From Sphingomonas adhaesiva (GTDB lineage: Bacteria > Pseudomonadota > Alphaproteobacteria > Sphingomonadales > Sphingomonadaceae), in assembly GCF_036946125.1 (NCBI RefSeq), contig NZ_JAQIJT010000001.1, positions 151,284 through 215,283 of the forward strand: 64,000 nucleotides of DNA. The letters are read 5' to 3'. The notes under the pieces were generated by a model, which saw only the letters and a program-made list of their open reading frames with translations, had not been told where the DNA came from and searched no databases. Below, one piece after another: positions 3,657-28,953 of the stretch; the first letter of the stretch is position 1, and the number at the start of each line of letters is the position of its first letter. The position numbers and the translations under genes are program-made.

Positions 3657-4910
3657 TCACGCGGCGAACAATTCCAGCTGTTGCGTCCTTGCCTTCGGCG
3701 CGACCAGCGGCGTCAGATCGGCACGGTCCGCCAGCACCACCGGGCGCCAGTCCTCGGTCGTGATGAACGGCCGAACGCGCGCGATCGACACCGTCAGCCG
3801 CGCGACATCGTCCAGCCGCAACCGCCGCCAGCGCCGCGCCGCCAGGATGCTCGCCACCGCCTTCGTCCCCAGCCCCGGCACGCGCCACAGCAGCTCGCGC
3901 GGCGCGCGATTGATGTCGACCGGGAAGCGCTCGCGAAATTTCAGCGCCCACGCCAGCTTGGGGTCCATATCGAGCGGCAGCATCCCCGTCGCCGCATCGG
4001 TCGCCGCCACCACCTCCGCGGGCTGGAAGCCGTAGAAGCGCATCAGCCAGTCCGACTGGTACAGCCGGTGCTCGCGCATCAGCGGCGGGCGCTGGAGCGG
4101 CAGCACCGCGGACGCGTCCGGGATCGGGCTGAAGGCCGAATAATAGACCCGCCGCAAGCCGAAGCGGTCGTACAGCGCCGACGCCCTGGTCACGATGTCG
4201 CCGTCCGTCGCGGCATCCGCCCCGACGATCATCTGCGTCGACTGCCCCGCGGGCGCGAACGTCGGCGCCGATCTGTAGCGCTTCTTCGCATCCGCCGTAT
4301 CGACGATCGCGCTCTTCATGTCGCGCATCGCGCCCTCGATCCGCGCCCCGTCCTTCTCGGGCGCCAGCCGCTTCAGCCCGCCCGCGGTCGGCAGCTCGAC
4401 GTTGATCGAGACGCGGTCGGCAAACAGGCCCGCGCGATGCACCAGCTCCGGATCGGCGTCGGGGATCGTCTTGAGGTGGATGTATCCGCGAAAATGATGA
4501 TCCTCGCGCAGCGACCGCGCCACCTCGACGATCTGTTCCATCGTATAGTCCGACGAATGGATGATCCCCGACGACAGGAACAGCCCCTCGATATAATTGC
4601 GCCGATAGAAGGACAGGGTGAGGTTCACCACCTCCTGCGCGGTTAACCGCGCGCGCCGCACGTTCGAGCTCTTGCGGTTGATGCAATAATGACAGTCGAA
4701 GATGCAGCTGTTGGTCAGCAGGATCTTGAGCAGCGAAATGCACCGGCCATCAGGGGCATAGGCATGGCAGATGCCCATCCCCTCGGTCGAACCCAGCCCC
4801 TTGCCGTCCTTCGAGTTCCGCTTCGCCGTGCCCGACGACGCGCAGGACGCATCGTACTTCGCCGCATCGGCGAGGATCTCCAGCTTCCGGCGGGTGTCGA
4901 GTTGCGCCAT
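3657..4910 (-). CDS. putative DNA modification/repair radical SAM protein (TIGR03916-like)
   Basis: CX3CX2C cluster CIFDCHYC. The N-terminus MAQLDTRRKLEILADAAKYDASCASSG matches the family's usual start, so I prefer ATG 4910. An in-frame upstream ATG at 4964 is the alternative. Confidence 0.85.
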   Translation of the reverse strand: MAQLDTRRKLEILADAAKYDASCASSGTAKRNSKDGKGLGSTEGMGICHAYAPDGRCISLLKILLTNSCIFDCHYCINRKSSNVRRARLTAQEVVNLTLSFYRRNYIEGLFLSSGIIHSSDYTMEQIVEVARSLREDHHFRGYIHLKTIPDADPELVHRAGLFADRVSINVELPTAGGLKRLAPEKDGARIEGAMRDMKSAIVDTADAKKRYRSAPTFAPAGQSTQMIVGADAATDGDIVTRASALYDRFGLRRVYYSAFSPIPDASAVLPLQRPPLMREHRLYQSDWLMRFYGFQPAEVVAATDAATGMLPLDMDPKLAWALKFRERFPVDINRAPRELLWRVPGLGTKAVASILAARRWRRLRLDDVARLTVSIARVRPFITTEDWRPVVLADRADLTPLVAPKARTQQLELFAA

Positions 4911-4912
4911 AT

Positions 4913-4927
4913 GTTCGATGTATGTTC
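4913..4927. promoter_or_regulatory. alphaproteobacterial LexA (SOS) box GTTC-N7-GTTC
   Basis: The sequence GTTCgatgtatGTTC (minus strand GAACatacatcGAAC) lies 2 nt upstream of the preferred radical SAM start, inside the 65-bp divergent region shared with the GT87-like gene. Confidence 0.6.
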
Positions 4928-4975
4928 GCGCGCGCGCCTTGTCGAGGGCGAACCGTGCTGCCATGGATCAAGTCG

Positions 4976-6199
4976 ATGAAGCGTATCGTCGATCGGCTCG
5001 GCCCCAACGGCCCCTATCTGGCGCTGGCCCTGACCTGCCTGCTCGGCTGGGGGTTCAAGGCGCATTGCGGCGCGGGCTGGACCGGCAGCGAACAATATAC
5101 CACCGGCTGTTACAGCGACGCCGTCCCCTTCTGGGGGATGCGCGGGCTGGCCGACGGCAAGGTGCCGTACTTCCAGGCGCGGATGGAATATCCGGTGCTG
5201 ACCGGCGCGCTGATCTGGGTCGAGGCGCTGTTCGCGCGGGTCACCGCCGGCGTCCGCGCCGATGCCGCCACCTTCCTCAACGCGGTCGTGCTGGGCAATG
5301 CGATCCTCGCCTTCGCCATTCTGGAGATGATCCGGGGCGTCGGCCTGTCGCTTCGGCGCCAGTATGCCTGGGCACTGGCGCCGCCGCTTGTCCTCTACCT
5401 CGGCCACAATTGGGACCTGCTGGCCGCATCCTTCGCGGTAGCTGCGATGCTGGCAGCCCGTCGCGACCGGCGCGTCCGCGCCACCGCGCTCGCTGCACTG
5501 GGCGGCGCGGCGAAGCTCTTCCCGGTGCTGATGCTGCCGCTTCTCGGGCTGGGCGCGCTGTTCGCACCCCGACGCTCCCACCGGGACCGTTTCGTCGGCG
5601 CGGCGTCGCTGGTCGTCGTGGCGATCGCCGCATGGGGCGCGGTGAACCTGCCGGTGGCCGCGCTCGCCTTCGACAACTGGCGCGAATTCTACGCCTTCTC
5701 CGGCGAGCGCCCCGGCACGGCGGCGAGCATGTGGGAGCTGATGGCGCAATTCGGCTGGTGGATCACCGACGTGCCGACGCGCAACCTGTGGTCGTTCCTG
5801 CTGTTCGCCGGCGGCGCGGCGACGATCGTCGCGGCTGGATGGCGGCGGCATGGCGAACAGCCGTGGCTGCTGTTCACCCCGGTGCTCGCGTGGTTCCTGC
5901 TGACCAACAAGGTGTGGTCGCCGCAATTCGACCTGTGGCTCTGGCCGATGCTGGTGCTGACCGGCACGCGCGCGCGCCCGATGGCATTGTTCCTGCTGGG
6001 CGACGTGGCCGCCTATTTCGCCGAATTCTGGATGTTCGCCGGCATGGAAGGCGCCTCCCCCTCCGCCACCCACACCGACATCCTCACCGCCGCCCTGGTC
6101 CGCGCCGTTGCGATCCTGTGGCTGATCCACGCGGCGGTCCGCGACCCGGCGCCGAGTTGGGCGCGATTCACGCGAAGCCGCGAAGACGCAAAGGCGTAG
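4976..6199 (+). CDS. polytopic membrane protein resembling DUF2029 / GT87-type polyprenyl-phosphate-mannose glycosyltransferases
   Basis: Start taken at MKRIVDRLGPNGPYLALAL (ATG 4976). There are multiple TM segments, and CYSDAVPFWGMRGL..PYFQARMEYPVLTG resembles the N-terminal loop motif of actinobacterial DUF2029/GT87 proteins. The last ~11 codons are encoded by the tandem repeat. Confidence 0.6.
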   Translation: MKRIVDRLGPNGPYLALALTCLLGWGFKAHCGAGWTGSEQYTTGCYSDAVPFWGMRGLADGKVPYFQARMEYPVLTGALIWVEALFARVTAGVRADAATFLNAVVLGNAILAFAILEMIRGVGLSLRRQYAWALAPPLVLYLGHNWDLLAASFAVAAMLAARRDRRVRATALAALGGAAKLFPVLMLPLLGLGALFAPRRSHRDRFVGAASLVVVAIAAWGAVNLPVAALAFDNWREFYAFSGERPGTAASMWELMAQFGWWITDVPTRNLWSFLLFAGGAATIVAAGWRRHGEQPWLLFTPVLAWFLLTNKVWSPQFDLWLWPMLVLTGTRARPMALFLLGDVAAYFAEFWMFAGMEGASPSATHTDILTAALVRAVAILWLIHAAVRDPAPSWARFTRSREDAKA

Positions 6200-6387
6200 C
6201 GCCCGGCGCAAAGCGCCCTTACTGGATCGCGCAGAGGAAGACAGGCCCCCGCCGTCCCCGAGCGCTCCATCTTCGCGTCTTCGCGTCTTCGCGAGAGAAA
6301 GGGATACACGCGGAGGCGCGGAGGCGCGGAGGCGCGGAGAGCATCGGCACCGCCCTCTGCGTCCTTCGCGTGCTCTGCGCGAACCAG

Positions 6388-6413
6388 AAAAAAAGAGCCG
6401 CCCGTGGCGGCTC
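6388..6413 (-). terminator. intrinsic-terminator-like hairpin plus T7 (minus strand), repeat unit 1
   Basis: gagccgcc-cgt-ggcggctc is an 8-bp perfect stem. On the minus strand it is followed by TTTTTTT (plus-strand A7 at 6388-6394). Confidence 0.5.
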
Positions 6414-6660
6414 GGAACGACCCCGGCGCCGGCCTGAATCGGATTCACGCGAAGCCGCGAAGACGCGAAGGCGGAGCGCCCTTACTGGTTCGCGCAGAGC
6501 ACGCAGAGAACGCAGAGGAAGACAGGCCCCCGCCGCCCCCGAGCGCTCCATCTTCGCGTCTTCACGTCTTCGCGAGAGAAAAGGATTCACGCGGAGGCGC
6601 GGAGGCGCAGAAAGCATCGGCACCGCCCTCTGCGTCCTTCGCGTGCTCTGCGCGAACCAG

Positions 6661-6686
6661 AAAAAAAGAGCCGTCCGTGGCGGCTC
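6661..6686 (-). terminator. intrinsic-terminator-like hairpin plus T7 (minus strand), repeat unit 2
   Basis: gagccgtc-cgt-ggcggctc (one G-U pair), preceded on the plus strand by A7 (6661-6667). Confidence 0.5.
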
Positions 6687-6920
6687 GGAGCGACCCCGGC
6701 GCCGGCCTGAATCGGATTCACGCGAAGCCGCGAAGACGCGAAGGCGGAGCGCCCTTACTGGTTCGCGCAGAGTACGCAGAGAACGCAGAGGAAGACAGGC
6801 CCCCGCCGCCCCCGAGCGCTCCATCTTCGCGTCTTCGCGTCTTCGCGAGATAAAAGGATTCACGCGGATGCGCAGAGAGCATCGGCACCACCCTCTGCGT
6901 CCTCCGCGTGCTCTGCGCGA

Positions 6921-6950
6921 ACCAGAAAAGAGAGCCGCCCGTGGCGGCTC
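6921..6950 (-). terminator. probable smc terminator (hairpin plus TCTTTTCT on the minus strand), repeat unit 3
   Basis: Same 8-bp stem, at 6932-6950, ~58 nt downstream of the smc stop at 7008-7010. The minus-strand tail is T-rich. Confidence 0.55.
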
Positions 6951-7007
6951 GGAACGCAGCAACAGACGCCACACCTCCGCGTCTTCGCGCCTCCGCGTGA
7001 ACCCGAT

Positions 7008-10000
7008 CTACTCCGCCGCCAGCAATTCCGCCGCCTGAAGGTCCACCGACACCAGCCGGCTCACCCCCTTTTCCACCATCGTCACCCCGAACAGCCGGTG
7101 CATCCGGCTCATCGTCACCGCATTGTGCGTCACGATCAGGTACCGCGTGTCGGTTTCCTGCGTCATCCGGTCGAGCAGGTCGCAGAATCGCTCGATATTC
7201 GCATCGTCCAGCGGCGCATCCACCTCGTCCAGCACGCAGATCGGCGCCGGATTCGTCAGAAACAGCCCGAAGATCAGCGCCACCGCGGTCAACGCCTGCT
7301 CGCCCCCCGACAATAACGTCAGCGATTGCAGCCGCTTGCCCGGCGGTTGCGCCATGATCTCCAGCCCCGCCTCCAGCGGATCGTCCGAATCCACCATCGC
7401 CAGATGCGCCTGCCCGCCGTCGAACAGCGTCGTGAACAGCCGCCGGAAATGCCCGTCCACCGCCTCGAACGCCGCCAGCAGCCGCTGCCGCCCCTCGCGG
7501 TTGAGCGTCCCGATCGACCCGCGCAGCCGGTTGACCGCCTGCCCCAGCTCGTCGCGTTCCGCCGCGGTCGCGCTGCCCGTCGCCTCCAGCTCGGCCAGTT
7601 CGCGCTCCGCGACCAGATTGACCGGCCCCAGCCGCTCGCGATCGAGCGTCAGCCGCTCGTGCGCCTGCGACTCGGCCTGCGGCGTGGCCACCGACCCGCT
7701 GTCGAACCCCGCCTTCTTCGGCAGCACGGGGGCGGGACATTCGAACCGTTCGCCCGCGACCCGCCCCATCTCGACACGGCGCAGGTCGTGGTTCTCCGCC
7801 CGCGCCGCCGCCCCCGCGCGTGCCTCGCGGGCGGCGGCGAGCGCCTCGTTCGCGCGCGCCTGCGCCGCATCGGCTGCGCGTACCGCGCTATCCGCATCCC
7901 GCTCCGCCGCCTGCGCGACATCTGCCGCCTCCTGCGTCTCGCGGTGCGCGGTCTCCAGCGTCGCGATCTGCGCCGTCAGCTGCGCCGGGCGATCGACCAG
8001 TCTCTCCAGCTCCGCGCCCAGATCGCCCGCGCGCTTGTCCATGTCGCCGATCCGCCGCGCCGCCTCGCCTGCGCGCGCGCGCCAGCCCTTCGCCTCCGCG
8101 GTTCCCGCCGCGCGCCGCTCGCGCGCGGTCGCCAGCATGCGGTCGTGCGAGGTGCGATCGGCCCGCGCCAGCGCCACCTGCGCGCGCGCCGCCTGCGCCT
8201 CGGCCTGCAACCGCGCGACCTCGCCCGCCGCGCCGCTGCCATCGGGGAGCGCCTCCAGCGCAGCCTGCGCGCCGTCGCGCTCGCGCTCCGCCTCGGCGAC
8301 GTCCGCCGCCGCACGCTCCGCCCGGACGGTCAGGTCCCGGCGCTGCTCCGCCAGCCGGTCCAGTTGCGCGGCGGCGCGATCCTCCTCGCGCTGTGCGGCG
8401 CGCTCCTCTTCCTCCGCCCTGGTCAGCAGCGCGCGCGCCGATTGCGCCGCACCGCGCGCGCGCGCGATCCGCTCGTCGACCGCCGCGCGGCGCTGCGTCG
8501 CCTGCGCCACCGCCGCCTCGACGCCGGGCCGCTCGGCCTCGATCGCGGCCAGCCGGTTGCGCCGCTCCATCCGCTCCGCCGCCGCCGCGCCCCCGCCGGT
8601 GGTGATATAGCCGTCCCACCGTCGCAGCCGCCCCTCGCGCGTGACCAGCCGCTGCCCGGGCGACAGCGGCTGCCCCGAATCCGCCTCCACCAGAAAGATC
8701 TGCGACAGCCGCCGCGTCATCGCGTCCGGCGCGGTGACGCGCGCGGCGAGCGGCAGCGTCCCCACCGGCGCCGGCGGGTCGGTCTTGCGCACCGCCGACC
8801 CGCGCCAGTCCTCCAGCGAGGATTCCAGATCGTCCCCCAGCGCCGCCGCCAGCGCACGTTCGAACCCCGGCTCCGCGCTGATCGCATCGACCAGCCGGTC
8901 GCCCGCCTCGCGCGTGGCGCGGCGCAGCGCCGCCGCCTCGCCGTCCAGCGCCGCGAGCGCGGCGATCGCCGCGGCGCGCGCCGCCTCCGCCGGATCGCGG
9001 TCCTCGCGCGCCTCCGCCTCGCTGGTATCCGCCCAGTCGAGCGCCGCGCGCGCCTTCGCCGCCTGCTCGCGCGCCGTCGCCTGCGCCGCCGCCGCGGCAT
9101 CGCGCGCGGCCTCCAGCACCGCCGGGTCGTCGAGGGACGCGAGCGCACGCGTCACCTGCTCGCCATCGCGCACCGCGCGATCGTGGCGCGCCTGCGCAGC
9201 CGCCAGCGCGGCGGCGGCAACGCGCCGCTCCGCCGCCTCCGCCGCCTGCGCCGACAGCGCCTGCGCCAGCGTCACCTCGACATCGCGCGCCGCACGTTCC
9301 GCGTCGGACAGCGCCTGCTCCAGCGCAGGGACCGCCGCGGTCGCCTCGGCGATACGGCGGTCGAGGTCGGCCGCCTCCTCGCCCAGCCGCGCCAGCGCCT
9401 CCGATGCGTCGTGCGCCAGCGCATCCTCACGCGCGCGATCCTCCGCGATCCGCCTGGCGGTGGTCTCCATCTCCAGCAACCGGCGCTGGAGCCCGTGGCG
9501 CTGCTCTCGCGCGCGGGTCAGCTGATGACCCACCTCGCCCGCCCGGTCGCGCGCCGCCAGCGCCGCGGAGCGCGCGGCCGCCAGCGTCGCCGCCGCGTCG
9601 CGCTGTGCGGCCAGCGTCGCCTGCTCCGCGGTCGTCGCGTCCGCGACCGCGCGGTCCGCCGCCGCCGCCTCGGCGCGCGCCGCCTCCGCCGCCGCCGCGG
9701 CATCGCGCCAGCGCGCATAGATCATCCGCGCCTCCGCCACGCGGATCCGCTCCGACAGCAGCCGATAGCGTTCCGCCGCGCGCGCCTGCCGCCGCAGCGC
9801 CGCGACGCGCGTCGCCTGGTCCGCCATCAGTTCGTCGAGCCGCGCCAGATTGGCCTCGGTCGCGCGCAGCCGCGCCTCGGCATCCTTGCGCCGCACGTGG
9901 AGGCCCGCGATCCCGGCGGCTTCCTCCAGCATCGCCCGCCGCTCGCCGGGCTTCGCCGAAATGATCGCGCCGATCCGGTTCTGGCTGACCAGCGCGGGCG

Positions 10001-10400
10001 AATGCGCGCCCGTCGCCGAATCGGCGAACAGCAACTGCACGTCCCTGGCGCGCACGTCGCGCCCGTCGATCCGGTAGGCGCTGCCCGCGCCGCGCTCGAT
10101 CCGGCGCACCACCTCGCTTTCGGTGGCGCCGTCCGGGCCGTCGACCTCGGCCAGCAGCGCGACCTCGGCGAAGTCGCGCGGCGGACGCGTCGCGGTGCCC
10201 GCGAAGATCACGTCCTCCATGCCCGCGCCGCGCATCGACTTCGCGCTGTTCTCGCCCATCGTCCAGCGCAGCGCTTCGAGCAGGTTGGACTTGCCGCAGC
10301 CGTTGGGGCCGACGACGCCGGTCAGCCCGGGCTCGATGCGCAGGTCGGCCGGGTCGACGAAGCTCTTGAAGCCCGTCAGCCGCAGCCGCTTGATCCGCAT
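7008..10400 (-). CDS. smc: chromosome segregation protein SMC
   Basis: 1130 aa. N-terminal MRIKRLRLTGFKSF...GPNGCGKSNLLEALRW (Walker A), a long Ala/Glu/Arg coiled coil, and C-terminal LSGGEQALTAVALIF...LDEVDAPLD. Confidence 0.95.
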   Translation of the reverse strand: MRIKRLRLTGFKSFVDPADLRIEPGLTGVVGPNGCGKSNLLEALRWTMGENSAKSMRGAGMEDVIFAGTATRPPRDFAEVALLAEVDGPDGATESEVVRRIERGAGSAYRIDGRDVRARDVQLLFADSATGAHSPALVSQNRIGAIISAKPGERRAMLEEAAGIAGLHVRRKDAEARLRATEANLARLDELMADQATRVAALRRQARAAERYRLLSERIRVAEARMIYARWRDAAAAAEAARAEAAAADRAVADATTAEQATLAAQRDAAATLAAARSAALAARDRAGEVGHQLTRAREQRHGLQRRLLEMETTARRIAEDRAREDALAHDASEALARLGEEAADLDRRIAEATAAVPALEQALSDAERAARDVEVTLAQALSAQAAEAAERRVAAAALAAAQARHDRAVRDGEQVTRALASLDDPAVLEAARDAAAAAQATAREQAAKARAALDWADTSEAEAREDRDPAEAARAAAIAALAALDGEAAALRRATREAGDRLVDAISAEPGFERALAAALGDDLESSLEDWRGSAVRKTDPPAPVGTLPLAARVTAPDAMTRRLSQIFLVEADSGQPLSPGQRLVTREGRLRRWDGYITTGGGAAAAERMERRNRLAAIEAERPGVEAAVAQATQRRAAVDERIARARGAAQSARALLTRAEEEERAAQREEDRAAAQLDRLAEQRRDLTVRAERAAADVAEAERERDGAQAALEALPDGSGAAGEVARLQAEAQAARAQVALARADRTSHDRMLATARERRAAGTAEAKGWRARAGEAARRIGDMDKRAGDLGAELERLVDRPAQLTAQIATLETAHRETQEAADVAQAAERDADSAVRAADAAQARANEALAAAREARAGAAARAENHDLRRVEMGRVAGERFECPAPVLPKKAGFDSGSVATPQAESQAHERLTLDRERLGPVNLVAERELAELEATGSATAAERDELGQAVNRLRGSIGTLNREGRQRLLAAFEAVDGHFRRLFTTLFDGGQAHLAMVDSDDPLEAGLEIMAQPPGKRLQSLTLLSGGEQALTAVALIFGLFLTNPAPICVLDEVDAPLDDANIERFCDLLDRMTQETDTRYLIVTHNAVTMSRMHRLFGVTMVEKGVSRLVSVDLQAAELLAAE

Positions 10401-27453: not shown

Positions 27454-28953
27454 TTACGCGAAGGGCTCTCGCGGTGCCGAATCGATGACCGGCGCGCCCG
27501 TCAACTTGGCCATCCGCAGTTCATGCTCGCGCCGGCCGAACGGGAAGCGGGTGTAGAAGAAGGCCGCCAGGACGTTGAACGCGACATAGCAGCAGGCATA
27601 GATCAGCGTCAGCCGGTCGAGCACGGCGGGCGCGACCTGCCCCGGCACCGCCTTCTCCGGAAAGCCCGCCGCCGCGAGGATCAGCCCGCAGACGAAGATG
27701 CCGATGCCGCTGGTGCATTTCTGCACGAAGAAACCGCCGGCGAAGAACATCCCCTCCGACCGGCGTCCGGTGCGCACCTCCGAATCCTCGACCACATCGG
27801 CCAGCATCGACGCGCCCAGGATATAGGCGGTGACGCCGCACGCGGTGCCTGCGGTCGCGAAGGCGAACAGCAGCGGCAGCATCGCGGGCTCGCCCACGGT
27901 GGGGAACACCCCCGCCAGCCGCAACCAATAGGGCGTCGTGCCCAGCGTCACGCTCAACAGCGCCGCGACGGCGGCGGCGCGCGGTTTGGCCAGCCTCGCC
28001 CCGATCTTCGGCGCGGCGATGAAGGCGACCATCACGCCCGCGAACAGCGACATGCTGAAATAGACGAAGGTCGCGCCGCGAAATCCCCAGACGAAGCTGT
28101 AGAGGTAGTTGGACAGCGCATAGACCAGCCCCTGCCCGGTATAGGCGCACACCCCCGCCAGCATCAGGATCGCGAACGCGCGGTTCCTCACCGTCTCCGC
28201 GATCTCGGCGAAGCTCTCCTTCAGCGACTGCGCCCGATGCGCCTGCTTGGGCAGGTACGGGATCTCCTTGTGCGTTCCCAGCGCGGAGATGACGATCGTC
28301 AGCCCCATCATGATCGCGCCCGCGATCGCGAAGCCGCGATAGCCCGCCGGATTGAGCAGCCCGTTGGGATAGCCCGGCGCCGGCGCCAGGAAATACATAT
28401 AGGCCGACACCAGCATCAGCAGCCCGCCGGCCCAGCCGAAGAGATAGCGATACGCCATGATCCGCGTCCGTTCGTCGTAATCGCCCGACAGTTCGGCGGC
28501 GAGCGCCTGGCTCGGCACCTCATAGGCGCTGACCGCCGACCGCACGATCACCGCGACGACGAACAACCAGCCCAGCACCATCTGGTGCGAGGCCGCGGGC
28601 GGGTTCCACAGCAGCAGCCAGCCGAGCATGATCGGCAGCGCGGCGCCGTACATCCACGGATGCCGCCGCCCCCAGCGCCCGCGCGTGCGATCCGAGAGAA
28701 AACCGATCGTGGGATCGACGAATGCGTCGACGATCAGCGCGCACATCACGACGAACCCCACGGTCGCCGCGGGCACGCCCACCACCTGGTTGTAGAACAG
28801 CAGCAGGAAGGTACCGAACCCGCTGTCCTTCACGCCGTACGCCGCCGCCCCCAGGCCATAGCTGGCCATCGTGCCCGGCGAGAGGCGGCGGACCATCGGC
28901 GCGCTCGACGCAGGCGTCGCCCCCGCGGCGTCGACCGCGCCGGGGGCGGTCAC
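27454..28953 (-). CDS. MFS transporter, glycoside-pentoside-hexuronide (GPH):cation symporter family
   Basis: GPH motif DRTRGRWGRRHPWM and ~12 TM segments. GTG 28953 overlaps the SDR stop (GTGA); the alternative start is ATG 28896 (MVRRLSPG). The 936-aa track ORF is a shadow extension. Confidence 0.75.
   Translation of the reverse strand: MTAPGAVDAAGATPASSAPMVRRLSPGTMASYGLGAAAYGVKDSGFGTFLLLFYNQVVGVPAATVGFVVMCALIVDAFVDPTIGFLSDRTRGRWGRRHPWMYGAALPIMLGWLLLWNPPAASHQMVLGWLFVVAVIVRSAVSAYEVPSQALAAELSGDYDERTRIMAYRYLFGWAGGLLMLVSAYMYFLAPAPGYPNGLLNPAGYRGFAIAGAIMMGLTIVISALGTHKEIPYLPKQAHRAQSLKESFAEIAETVRNRAFAILMLAGVCAYTGQGLVYALSNYLYSFVWGFRGATFVYFSMSLFAGVMVAFIAAPKIGARLAKPRAAAVAALLSVTLGTTPYWLRLAGVFPTVGEPAMLPLLFAFATAGTACGVTAYILGASMLADVVEDSEVRTGRRSEGMFFAGGFFVQKCTSGIGIFVCGLILAAAGFPEKAVPGQVAPAVLDRLTLIYACCYVAFNVLAAFFYTRFPFGRREHELRMAKLTGAPVIDSAPREPFA

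Follow-up and report, generated by a model that had tools for sequence, protein, structure and literature searches.

Three tandem repeat units between convergent genes of Sphingomonas adhaesiva as a probable triplicated mosaic of a dispersed inverted-repeat module

In a Sphingomonas adhaesiva MAG, the space between a GT87-like gene and a convergent SMC gene is occupied by about three tandem units of 273-277 bp that are 92-97% identical (positions 6143-7008), and the question raised by this locus is what such an array represents. A preliminary description had interpreted it as a possible series of small RNA genes. Our analysis indicates that it is quite probably a triplicated intergenic mosaic of a dispersed inverted-repeat module, which would provide 3'-UTR hairpins or terminators at most and would not constitute sRNA genes. 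In the window, by which we mean the whole 64-kb stretch of DNA that was analysed (71% G+C), TRF reported a single high-scoring tandem repeat at 6230-6956 (period 273, 2.7 copies, 92% matches, score 1224), and a repeat search aligned 6317-6589 with 6590-6862 at 97% identity. Both agree with the ~275-bp repeat of about three units and periods of 277 and 273 that had been described, with unit starts placed at 6145, 6422 and 6695 and spacings of 277 and 273 bp. The location reported earlier, 6165-7000, is correct, but the repeat runs slightly further, from about 6143 within the upstream gene to 7008. Units 1 and 2 are 83-95% identical depending on the segment while units 2 and 3 are 97% identical, with the differences consisting of substitutions, one 9-nt deletion and 8-nt octamer indels. 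A blastn search of PLSDB plasmids with one repeat unit gave no match. The features of the locus are as follows.

4976-6199, plus strand: GT87/DUF2029-like membrane protein gene, the upstream neighbour
6143-6419: repeat unit 1, which holds the true GT87 3' end, with B5' cut to one octamer and C grown to four
6165-6201, plus strand: module A5' of unit 1, forward
6224-6240, plus strand: module B5' of unit 1, forward, truncated
6262-6299, minus strand: module A3' of unit 1, reverse
6301-6341, plus strand: module C of unit 1, forward, four octamers CGCGGAGG
6354-6390, minus strand: module B3' of unit 1, reverse
6395-6413, minus strand: GC hairpin followed by T7, a probable duplicated copy of the SMC terminator
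6420-6692: repeat unit 2, which opens with the GT87 3' coding end in degenerate, frame-shifted form (ACCCCGGCGCCGGCCTGAATCGG; 83% in the repeat search, also seen by alignment)
6442-6479, plus strand: module A5' of unit 2, forward
6482-6518, plus strand: module B5' of unit 2, forward
6543-6580, minus strand: module A3' of unit 2, reverse
6583-6614, plus strand: module C of unit 2, forward
6627-6663, minus strand: module B3' of unit 2, reverse
6668-6686, minus strand: GC hairpin with one mismatch followed by T7, a probable duplicated copy
6693-6956: repeat unit 3, which matches unit 2 at 97% identity and has a module C one octamer shorter
6715-6752, plus strand: module A5' of unit 3, forward
6755-6791, plus strand: module B5' of unit 3, forward
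6816-6853, minus strand: module A3' of unit 3, reverse
6856-6879, plus strand: module C of unit 3, forward, shortened
6892-6928, minus strand: module B3' of unit 3, reverse
6932-6950, minus strand: GC hairpin with TCTTTTCT after it, 58 nt beyond the SMC stop
6967-7004, minus strand: terminal module T, reverse, single copy, adjoining the SMC stop codon
7008-10400, minus strand: SMC-like chromosome segregation ATPase gene (ORF, 1130 aa), the convergent downstream neighbour

The array is built from 16 copies of one ~35-nt module, 10 forward and 6 reverse, and one template fits all 16 arms upon alignment. Each unit holds five module copies in both orientations followed by a GC hairpin, with the 16th module ending the array. 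A module consists of a head, GGnTTCACGCG or TTCGCGC, that is conserved in all 16 window modules as well as in 120 loci found elsewhere (see below), followed by two to four octamers of the form CGCRRAGN. For example, unit 1 contains an octamer expansion of CGCGGAGG x3.9 at 6309-6339, which had been recorded earlier as a threefold micro-expansion. Two module motifs occur in the window 9 and 5 times, against expected counts of 0.05 and 0.00, respectively, and all lie in one module cluster; additional regex matches at 28192 and 34576 are located within coding sequence and were dismissed as chance.

Long inverted repeats, two pairs per unit, had been reported from first inspection and these are indeed present, with stem A joining 6445-6479 to 6543-6577 (35 nt, 86% complementary) and stem B joining 6482-6518 to 6627-6663 (37 nt, 89% complementary). 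The two pairs were thought to be interleaved in a pseudoknot topology. The interleaving is observed when arms are paired by best similarity, but a pseudoknot is unnecessary: since every arm belongs to the one module family, a fully nested fold exists, with A3'/C inside, B5'/B3' around it and A5' with the terminal module outermost, and this nested fold is the one of minimum energy. Calling the region a structured element is nonetheless fair, as folding of the whole array gives z = -12.7 to -14.4 on either strand. The single units present in the relatives L121 and L122 likewise fold into a single nested hairpin, at -206 kcal/mol for L121 (z = -15.3) and -212 kcal/mol for L122 (z = -14.6), in which terminal module T is the outermost partner of A5', and the L121 unit amounts to a 300-nt palindrome. 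Six modules folded individually as ssDNA gave z values, relative to shuffles, of -0.3 to -1.4 in five cases and -3.1 in one, with single modules forming only mini-stems of 3-4 bp. Covariation among orthologous units (RNAalifold, three sequences) was uninformative, with 2/108 pairs compensatory and a term of +8.4.

The orthologous locus in related strains is informative as to how the array arose. The two closest relatives, L121 (91% amino-acid identity) and L122 (84%), each contain exactly one unit with the same module order (A5', B5' forward; A3' reverse; C forward; B3' reverse; hairpin; T reverse), and the L122 orthologue of the SMC-like gene has a Pfam SMC_N match. S. endophytica and strain BE138 are without the spacer, with GT87 and SMC overlapping. 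In Leaf412 the order at this locus is A and B forward, two hairpins, then B and A reverse, and S. silueang and S. adhaesiva DSM 7418 exhibit further module arrangements. The GT87-like protein, which is 100% identical to [quoted passage not shown] and weakly matches Pfam GT87 (E = 5e-4), has its last 10 codons (FTRSREDAKA, then stop) encoded by module A5' of unit 1, and units 2 and 3 both open with a frame-shifted copy of ~25 nt of this coding end. Because the closest relatives have a single unit, the three supposed genes are explained by recent local duplication, and because the unit carries the degenerate last ~25 nt of the GT87 coding sequence this would be a segmental duplication and not a gene family. 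Thus, the single-unit relatives together with the copied coding end point to a lineage-specific segmental triplication.

We envisage an ancestral state in which a single imperfect palindrome of ~300 bp, comprised of six modules, was wedged between the stop codons of the GT87-like and SMC genes. The segment extending from the GT87 3' end through A5', B5', A3', C, B3' and the hairpin would then have been tandemly duplicated twice in the present lineage, with the first duplication perhaps illegitimate or microhomology-mediated, the second step possibly involving unequal crossing-over between copies, and octamer slippage following later. The SMC terminator hairpin would have been a passenger of these events. 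Any role of the array is most likely limited to providing very stable 3'-UTR hairpins or terminators for both convergent genes, in which it would be comparable with BIME/REP or Correia-type elements.

The module itself is dispersed well beyond the tandem array, which bears on a distinction between dispersed and tandem repeats that had been raised for the unit. A genome scan revealed at least 120 stretches with the module, mostly from Sphingomonadales but with a reach that includes Acidobacteriota, Verrucomicrobiota, Planctomycetota and other phyla; the 120 pattern-selected loci are biased to the canonical module variant. Searching with nhmmer and a 34-nt module profile recovered 15/16 window modules and few elsewhere, and is too insensitive for a census. 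Several species have multiple module loci (L059/L072, L057/L116), and dispersal within S. adhaesiva is seen via other assemblies (L059, L072, L285), with the window holding its single cluster. The typical gene-less form is an inverted pair located beside gene 3' ends with ~150-200 bp between the modules. For 69 convergent pairs from the 120 loci the median spacing is 164 bp (IQR 146-200 bp), and identity over 34 nt is 77.5% between partner arms versus 71.9% for non-partners (permutation p <= 2e-4). By a crude GC3-based gene call that left 20/50 elements unclassified, the 30 classifiable gene-less pairs are found between tandem genes in 21 cases, convergent genes in 7 and divergent genes in 2 (p = 0.011). 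The link of the modules to GxxExxY genes (see below) also accounts for junk peptide tails (…SRLRVN…, …TRRRGG…) that recur among annotated proteins.

Among known systems, the closest analogues of this module family are BIME, REPIN and MITE-type elements. BIMEs of Escherichia coli and relatives are extragenic clusters of ~35-nt REP sequences in alternating orientation that are located past gene 3' ends, often between convergent genes, with copy number that varies between strains; once transcribed they fold into stable hairpins by which the upstream mRNA can be stabilised or terminated. The 16 window modules share with BIMEs their mixed orientation and extragenic position between convergent genes, and gene-less pairs of the family are rare between divergent genes. 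However, each REP forms an imperfect palindrome of its own, headed by GTAG/GTGG, while the window module is internally octamer-periodic, is not a palindrome and has the head TTCACGCG, so that the GT[AG]G tetranucleotide is replaced by GGnTTCACGCG or TTCGCGC. REPIN-RAYT systems of Pseudomonas and others (Bertels and Rainey) resemble the module family in having inverted doublets of characteristic spacing, sequence variants that are specific to a species, one vertically inherited gene with these repeats in inverted orientation on either side, and no observed target-site duplication. They differ in that their gene is a RAYT (HUH/Y1) transposase while the gene flanked by modules is a PD-(D/E)XK GxxExxY protein of the unrelated nuclease family PF13366, and in that the module arms are octamer repeats and not hairpins, with module mobility being putative. 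MITEs, such as the Correia elements (NEMIS) of Neisseria, are gene-less elements of ~100-300 bp with terminal inverted repeats of ~30 nt that are co-transcribed with their neighbours, fold into long hairpins and vary in presence among related strains. Module pairs likewise form terminal inverted repeats around a short non-coding body and their presence or absence differs between related strains, but the module element has no observed target-site duplication, no known transposase and no autonomous IS known to have module ends; GxxExxY is the only gene seen to share them. To our knowledge GxxExxY is not a known transposase. RIMEs, which are Rhizobium-specific intergenic mosaic elements of the Alphaproteobacteria composed of large palindromes, are similar in kind; however, the module is spread well past the Rhizobiales and Alphaproteobacteria, and there is no evident sequence relation in a comparison made by description. 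Finally, the 23S rRNA intervening sequences with an ORF that are found in Leptospira and Coxiella (IVS, S23p) are considered selfish elements (PMC4990558) and, like the module cassettes, contain a small ORF of unknown function within inverted repeats able to form a long stem. Unlike these sequences, which are located within rRNA helix 45 and whose product is a four-helix-bundle protein, module cassettes and gene-less pairs are intergenic, and the cassette ORF is of the PD-(D/E)XK type.

Modules are also associated with GxxExxY genes in many bacterial phyla. They flank such genes in 10-12 of the 120 pattern-selected loci, with the gene family assigned by TIGR04256 (E = 3e-34) and PF13366 (PDDEXK_3, E = 3e-34). 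When 76 loci were picked by protein alone, modules were present on both sides in 52 (about two thirds) and on at least one side in 67, to be compared with a background module density of 0.245 per kb. The two flanks of a locus also match one another, with 35/76 loci having an own-flank complementarity score >= 40 versus 3/76 cross-locus controls. In two S. adhaesiva genomes the inverted repeat of the cassette equals module A5' of unit 1 over 27 nt, and TTCACGCGAAGCCGCGAAGACGCAAAG within that module recurs unchanged as the cassette's 5' inverted repeat. This link appears to be undescribed. The large family PF13366 has been catalogued under "function unknown, multiple transfers" (PMC3424549). Our literature searches found no paper on GxxExxY/PF13366 function or biochemistry, and nothing relevant under family names, module strings or REP/RAYT/MITE in sphingomonads; a PDB sequence search with GxxExxY found no relative or solved structure. 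GxxExxY genes are often mis-named "iron complex transport substrate-binding protein", a naming that the module association explains. We tentatively propose, as a possibility that we hold with less than even confidence, that the octamer module is the cis partner of the GxxExxY PD-(D/E)XK nuclease. A nuclease gene between inverted modules and numerous gene-less doublets of the same genome would then make up a system, either selfish or domesticated, that resembles REPIN/RAYT or IVS elements.

An extension of this proposal is that the array is composed of gene-less doublets that are actively copied or mobilised in the manner of REPIN/RAYT or MITE elements, a reading that we regard as possible though doubtful. 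It draws on the bracketing of GxxExxY by inverted modules across phyla, on arms that co-vary from locus to locus, on the S. adhaesiva variant common to cassette and gene-less modules, and on D...ExK catalytic residues that are invariant in the GxxExxY alignment. Empty sites (L209, L124) compared with filled sites (L121, L122) at one locus with diverged sequences likewise revealed no target-site duplication, as in REP/IS200-type or homing mechanisms, with junctions of TGG/ACCG/CTATTC versus TGG-GTTGAATTCACG...CGTGAACCAAC-CTATTC. The empty site of S. endophytica does contain a TTCAC, but this candidate for such a duplication was judged coincidental because BE138 is without it. Against active mobilisation, the copied coding fragment makes the present array a plain segmental duplication, and in many species the Sphingomonas cassette is located at one shared fabD-fabG site, as would be expected from vertical inheritance. 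Additionally, the interiors of gene-less pairs, examined as possible internal-deletion derivatives of the cassette, show no clear homology to GxxExxY gene ends (profile matches pass the module by ~40 nt in few cases, with low posterior probability), none of 74 module-containing stretches from viral contigs has a GxxExxY gene, and biochemistry for this family is missing from the literature that we searched. A tblastn search of the whole window with a GxxExxY protein gave no match, so the window array is gene-less. A comparison of G·U with A·C between the arms of cassettes, with counts of 39 and 29 (p = 0.27), gave no signal of strand-specific RNA pairing.

Returning to the segmental triplication, its three-copy count comes from one MAG assembly, and it could be asked whether a single unit was artefactually expanded. 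Repeats of 273 bp are hard for short reads and both close relatives are single-unit. However, artefactual expansion would yield identical copies, and the substitutions and indels that distinguish the units therefore count against it. The contig is also 1.34 Mb long, and sister MAGs from one accession series with it (L040) have "tig" contig names typical of long-read assemblers, which suggests that long reads were used. Consequently, an assembly artefact is quite improbable.

The original proposal, that the array encodes three paralogous ~270-nt RNAs read from the minus strand with their own intrinsic terminators, we consider very improbable. It was based on minus-strand GC hairpins with T-rich tracts at the end of each unit, and three such sites do exist, at 6413-6395 and 6686-6668 (both T7) and at 6950-6932 (TCTTTTCT); a terminator scan counted 5 terminator-like sites versus 1.2 expected. 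Single units also fold well beyond shuffles (z = -6.5 on the minus strand and -7.4 on the plus strand). However, the two strands fold equally well, as DNA palindromes should, and relatives have one unit or none. The unit contains a coding-sequence fragment, and its arms are members of a dispersed module family in which the order varies from locus to locus and from species to species, an outcome that the preliminary description had itself named as incompatible with its proposal. A scan of 5800-7400 for sigma-70-like promoters, with alphaproteobacterial promoter types outside its scope, found none, and Rfam at permissive E-values gave only miRNA-type hairpin matches far under threshold. The hairpin at 6950-6932 has a U run on the SMC strand 58 nt past the stop and thus has the form of an intrinsic terminator. 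It is likely, as judged from this arrangement, to be a working SMC terminator, and its position together with its single occurrence in L121, L122 and L125 suggests that an SMC terminator was copied along with the unit. In L121 and L122 the T run following the hairpin is absent, which also weighs against the sRNA proposal. The array is likely transcribed within the 3' UTRs of the flanking genes.

A coding function of the array, whether for a repetitive low-complexity protein or for an extended C terminus of a neighbour, has negligible probability, since the one plus-strand frame that is open across the array (frame 1, stop-free over 6165-7000, where all frames had been stated to be open) differs from the GT87 frame that stops at 6199, the other five frames have 2-4 stops each, 8- and 9-nt indels between units break any frame, and a G+C content of 71% leads one to expect open frames by chance. 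The array is thus non-coding, as had been supposed. One of its frames stays open throughout, and automated callers of sRNAs or genes will misread the array.

The array itself represents ordinary repeat dynamics, and the bracketing of GxxExxY genes by the same modules is the more interesting lead. This association provides a testable hypothesis on the substrate of the GxxExxY nuclease family. If the proposed partnership is true, the system would use a different enzyme from RAYT and would span many bacterial phyla, and the array in the window would represent a cluster of non-autonomous members of this system that was amplified locally. It may then constitute a second case, after the RAYTs, of a host-resident nuclease that is tied to a genome-wide inverted-repeat family.

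The array of three ~275-bp units is placed between two convergent genes and is closed by a module of its own:

4976-6199, + strand: GT87/DUF2029-like membrane protein gene, upstream of the array
6967-7004, - strand: module T, the sixteenth module, at the end of the array
7008-10400, - strand: SMC-like ATPase gene, downstream of the array

Tandem Repeats Finder detected a single large array at 6230-6956 (period 273, 2.7 copies, 92% matches, score 1224); no other tandem repeat of the 64-kb window reaches a score of 100. A repeat search gave 97% identity between 6317-6589 and 6590-6862, with unit landmarks spaced 277 and 273 bp apart. Both methods agree with the preliminary description of about three ~275-bp units, and the repeat search also recovered its inverted-repeat pairs A (6445-6479 / 6543-6577, 35 nt, 86%) and B (6482-6518 / 6627-6663, 37 nt, 89%). 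The CGCGGAGG micro-expansion in unit 1 was seen by Tandem Repeats Finder, and three GC hairpins on the minus strand, each with a T-rich tract after it, lie at 6413-6395, 6686-6668 and 6950-6932; a terminator scan counted 5 terminator-like sites versus 1.2 expected. All frames had been described as open, but only one of six is stop-free across 6165-7000. These results bear out the preliminary observation, and the element is highly structured.

Every arm is a copy of a single ~35-nt module, in which a head (GGnTTCACGCG, TTCGCGC or CTCTCGC) is followed by 2-4 octamers of the form CGCRRAGN. Each unit carries five modules in the order A5'(+), B5'(+), A3'(-), C(+), B3'(-), and then the GC hairpin. 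Module C contains ~4 octamers in unit 1 (6301-6341), 2-3 in unit 2 (6583-6614) and 1-2 in unit 3 (6856-6879), and thus the octamers appear to act like a microsatellite altered by slippage after duplication. In a Planctomycetota MAG a module match lies within an extended stretch of GGAGACGCGGAGG-type units (L021 5100-5260), so octamer arrays can grow much longer in other phyla.

Module A5' of unit 1 encodes the final ten codons of the GT87 gene. Module-encoded C-termini of ~10 residues (FTRSREDAKA-stop, EFTRSREDAKR-stop) occur in the window (6167-6199) and in two single-unit relatives, L121 (4190-4224) and L122 (4210-4242). In element-free species (L124 3640-3745, L209 2640-2745) the GT87 protein has an unrelated tail and the GT87 and SMC genes overlap by ~55 nt, which indicates that repeat insertion rewrote the 3' end of the GT87 gene. 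Upstream of this gene (window 3657-4964, - strand, and beyond; L121/L122 1-2989), a radical SAM protein, a hemerythrin-domain protein and a DUF4130+UDG protein are syntenic in all Sphingomonas loci compared, a neighbourhood that probably reflects a DNA-repair/modification gene pair without connection to the repeat.

The interleaved arms had been read as a possible pseudoknot. The pairs are real, but one unit reaches its lowest energy in a nested fold, B5'/B3' being outer and A3'/C inner, and any forward module can pair with any reverse module; thus the fold is promiscuous and a pseudoknot is not required. Lone modules are not palindromes. For the whole array the MFE frequency is 0 with no dominant structure, yet z = -12.7 to -14.4. 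In L121 and L122 the single unit folds into one near-perfect nested hairpin, from whose side the terminator hairpin branches (-206 and -212 kcal/mol; z = -15.3 and -14.6), and RNAalifold recovered the same nesting for the single unit. Fold strength is equal on both strands, as expected of DNA palindromes, and G·U-compatible mismatches exhibit no strand asymmetry (39 versus 29, p = 0.27), so that RNA-level and DNA-level pairing are not distinguishable by this measure.

The GT87 protein of the window is 100% identical to that of a Sphingomonas adhaesiva MAG, the closest relatives among those compared being L121 (91% aa) and L122 (84% aa). These two have the same gene order, and their ~260-270 bp spacer holds exactly one unit with the same module order, plus T. 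Among more distant species, S. endophytica and strain BE138 have no spacer and their GT87 and SMC genes overlap; Leaf412 carries a composite of another kind, simply nested (A+ B+ hairpin hairpin B- A-). At the start of units 2 and 3 of the window, the last ~25 nt of the GT87 coding sequence recur in degenerate, frame-shifted form. The single unit in relatives and the copied gene end together indicate that a palindromic element already in place underwent a lineage-specific segmental tandem triplication. Between units there are substitutions, octamer indels of 8 nt and a deletion of 9 nt, and these differences speak against an assembly expansion. No target-site duplication was found at the one empty-versus-filled site compared.

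A scan with pattern TTCACGCGRAGNCGCGRAGRCGC of one genome per species returned at least 120 module stretches, the majority from Sphingomonadales; Thermoanaerobaculia, Gemmatimonadaceae, Verrucomicrobiota, Planctomycetota, Syntrophobacteraceae and further groups are also represented among the matches listed. Elsewhere in the 64-kb window there is no module. Conservation is sharply lost at module borders, and differently ordered mosaic clusters occur in S. silueang and S. adhaesiva DSM 7418, in keeping with a dispersed REP-like composite of no conserved order. Among the matches listed, 69 convergent (+ ... -) pairs have a median spacing of 164 bp (IQR 146-200); partner arms are 77.5% identical versus 71.9% for arms from different loci (permutation p <= 2e-4), and Sphingomonas pairs enclose one or two small GC hairpins. 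With genes called crudely from GC3, 30 pairs could be classified as lying between tandem (21), convergent (7) or divergent (only 2) genes (p = 0.011), and thus nearly all adjoin a gene 3' end. Additionally, 74 viral-contig stretches carry modules; these IMG/VR viral/prophage contigs (L211-L284) match the strict pattern, are mostly 57-70% G+C and include some inverted pairs.

At 10-12 of the 120 pattern-selected loci listed, modules on both sides flank a ~124-aa gene, with TTCACGCGGAGACGCGGAGACGCGGAG, a few bases and ATG upstream and the reverse complement of this repeat downstream. The bracketed gene is GxxExxY (TIGR04256, E = 3e-34) / PDDEXK_3 (PF13366, E = 3e-34), a small predicted nuclease whose D68, E78 and K80 do not vary in the GxxExxY alignment. 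Sphingomonad cassettes lie between fabD and fabG, and their presence in many Sphingomonadaceae (L059 5552-5996, L285 1172-1612, L068 3300-3749, L129-L136, L140, L142) points to an old, vertically inherited insertion within a core fatty-acid synthesis operon. The 5' cassette repeat TTCACGCGAAGCCGCGAAGACGCAAAG of two S. adhaesiva genomes is identical to module A5' of unit 1 and to a module of the L072 cluster.

In the reverse test, 80 metagenome loci were selected by protein similarity only, 76 with usable flanks. Octamer-periodic modules lie on both sides in 52/76 (38 heads-out, 6 heads-in, 8 direct), on one side in 15 and on neither in 9, the background density being 0.245 modules per kb. Cassette loci range from 39-68% G+C and their octamers vary (CGCGGAG, CGCGAAG, CGCAGAG, CGCAAAG, CACGAAG, CGCCAAG, CACGGAG, CACAGAG), yet both arms of one locus match. 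Own-flank complementarity scores >= 40 in 35/76 loci versus 3/76 cross-locus controls. Direct or heads-in modules (L174 1-520, L170, L191, L205), departing from the canonical heads-out layout, hint at genes within larger module arrays, or at an orientation not fixed relative to the gene. Called proteins are 131-160 aa versus the 124-aa core, with tails from read-through of the flanking module. Many of these PF13366/GxxExxY proteins (P0122, P0125, P0132, P0137 and others) bear the source names "iron complex transport system substrate-binding protein" or "Fe3+ hydroxamate ABC transporter substrate-binding protein", apparently a mis-annotation that has spread from record to record. The window contains no GxxExxY gene, tblastn found none in the 74 viral/prophage stretches, and interiors of gene-less pairs show no clear derivation from it.

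The array had been proposed to encode three paralogous sRNAs, each ending in a minus-strand terminator. This reading is not supported: relatives have one unit or none, the modules are dispersed, and the repeated terminator would be that of the SMC gene, carried along in the triplication. The best account of the array is a BIME/REPIN/MITE-like mosaic, built from a dispersed family of modules, that has been triplicated and occupies the 3' region of two convergent genes. The module does not have the sequence features that define true REPs and, unlike in REPIN-RAYT systems, the gene that its copies bracket is not a RAYT; it would thus be a variant of this kind that is itself new. The literature searched contained no description of these sequences and no function for PF13366, and no solved GxxExxY structure was found. 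The part that deserves follow-up is the link, across phyla, between the module and the GxxExxY nuclease gene.
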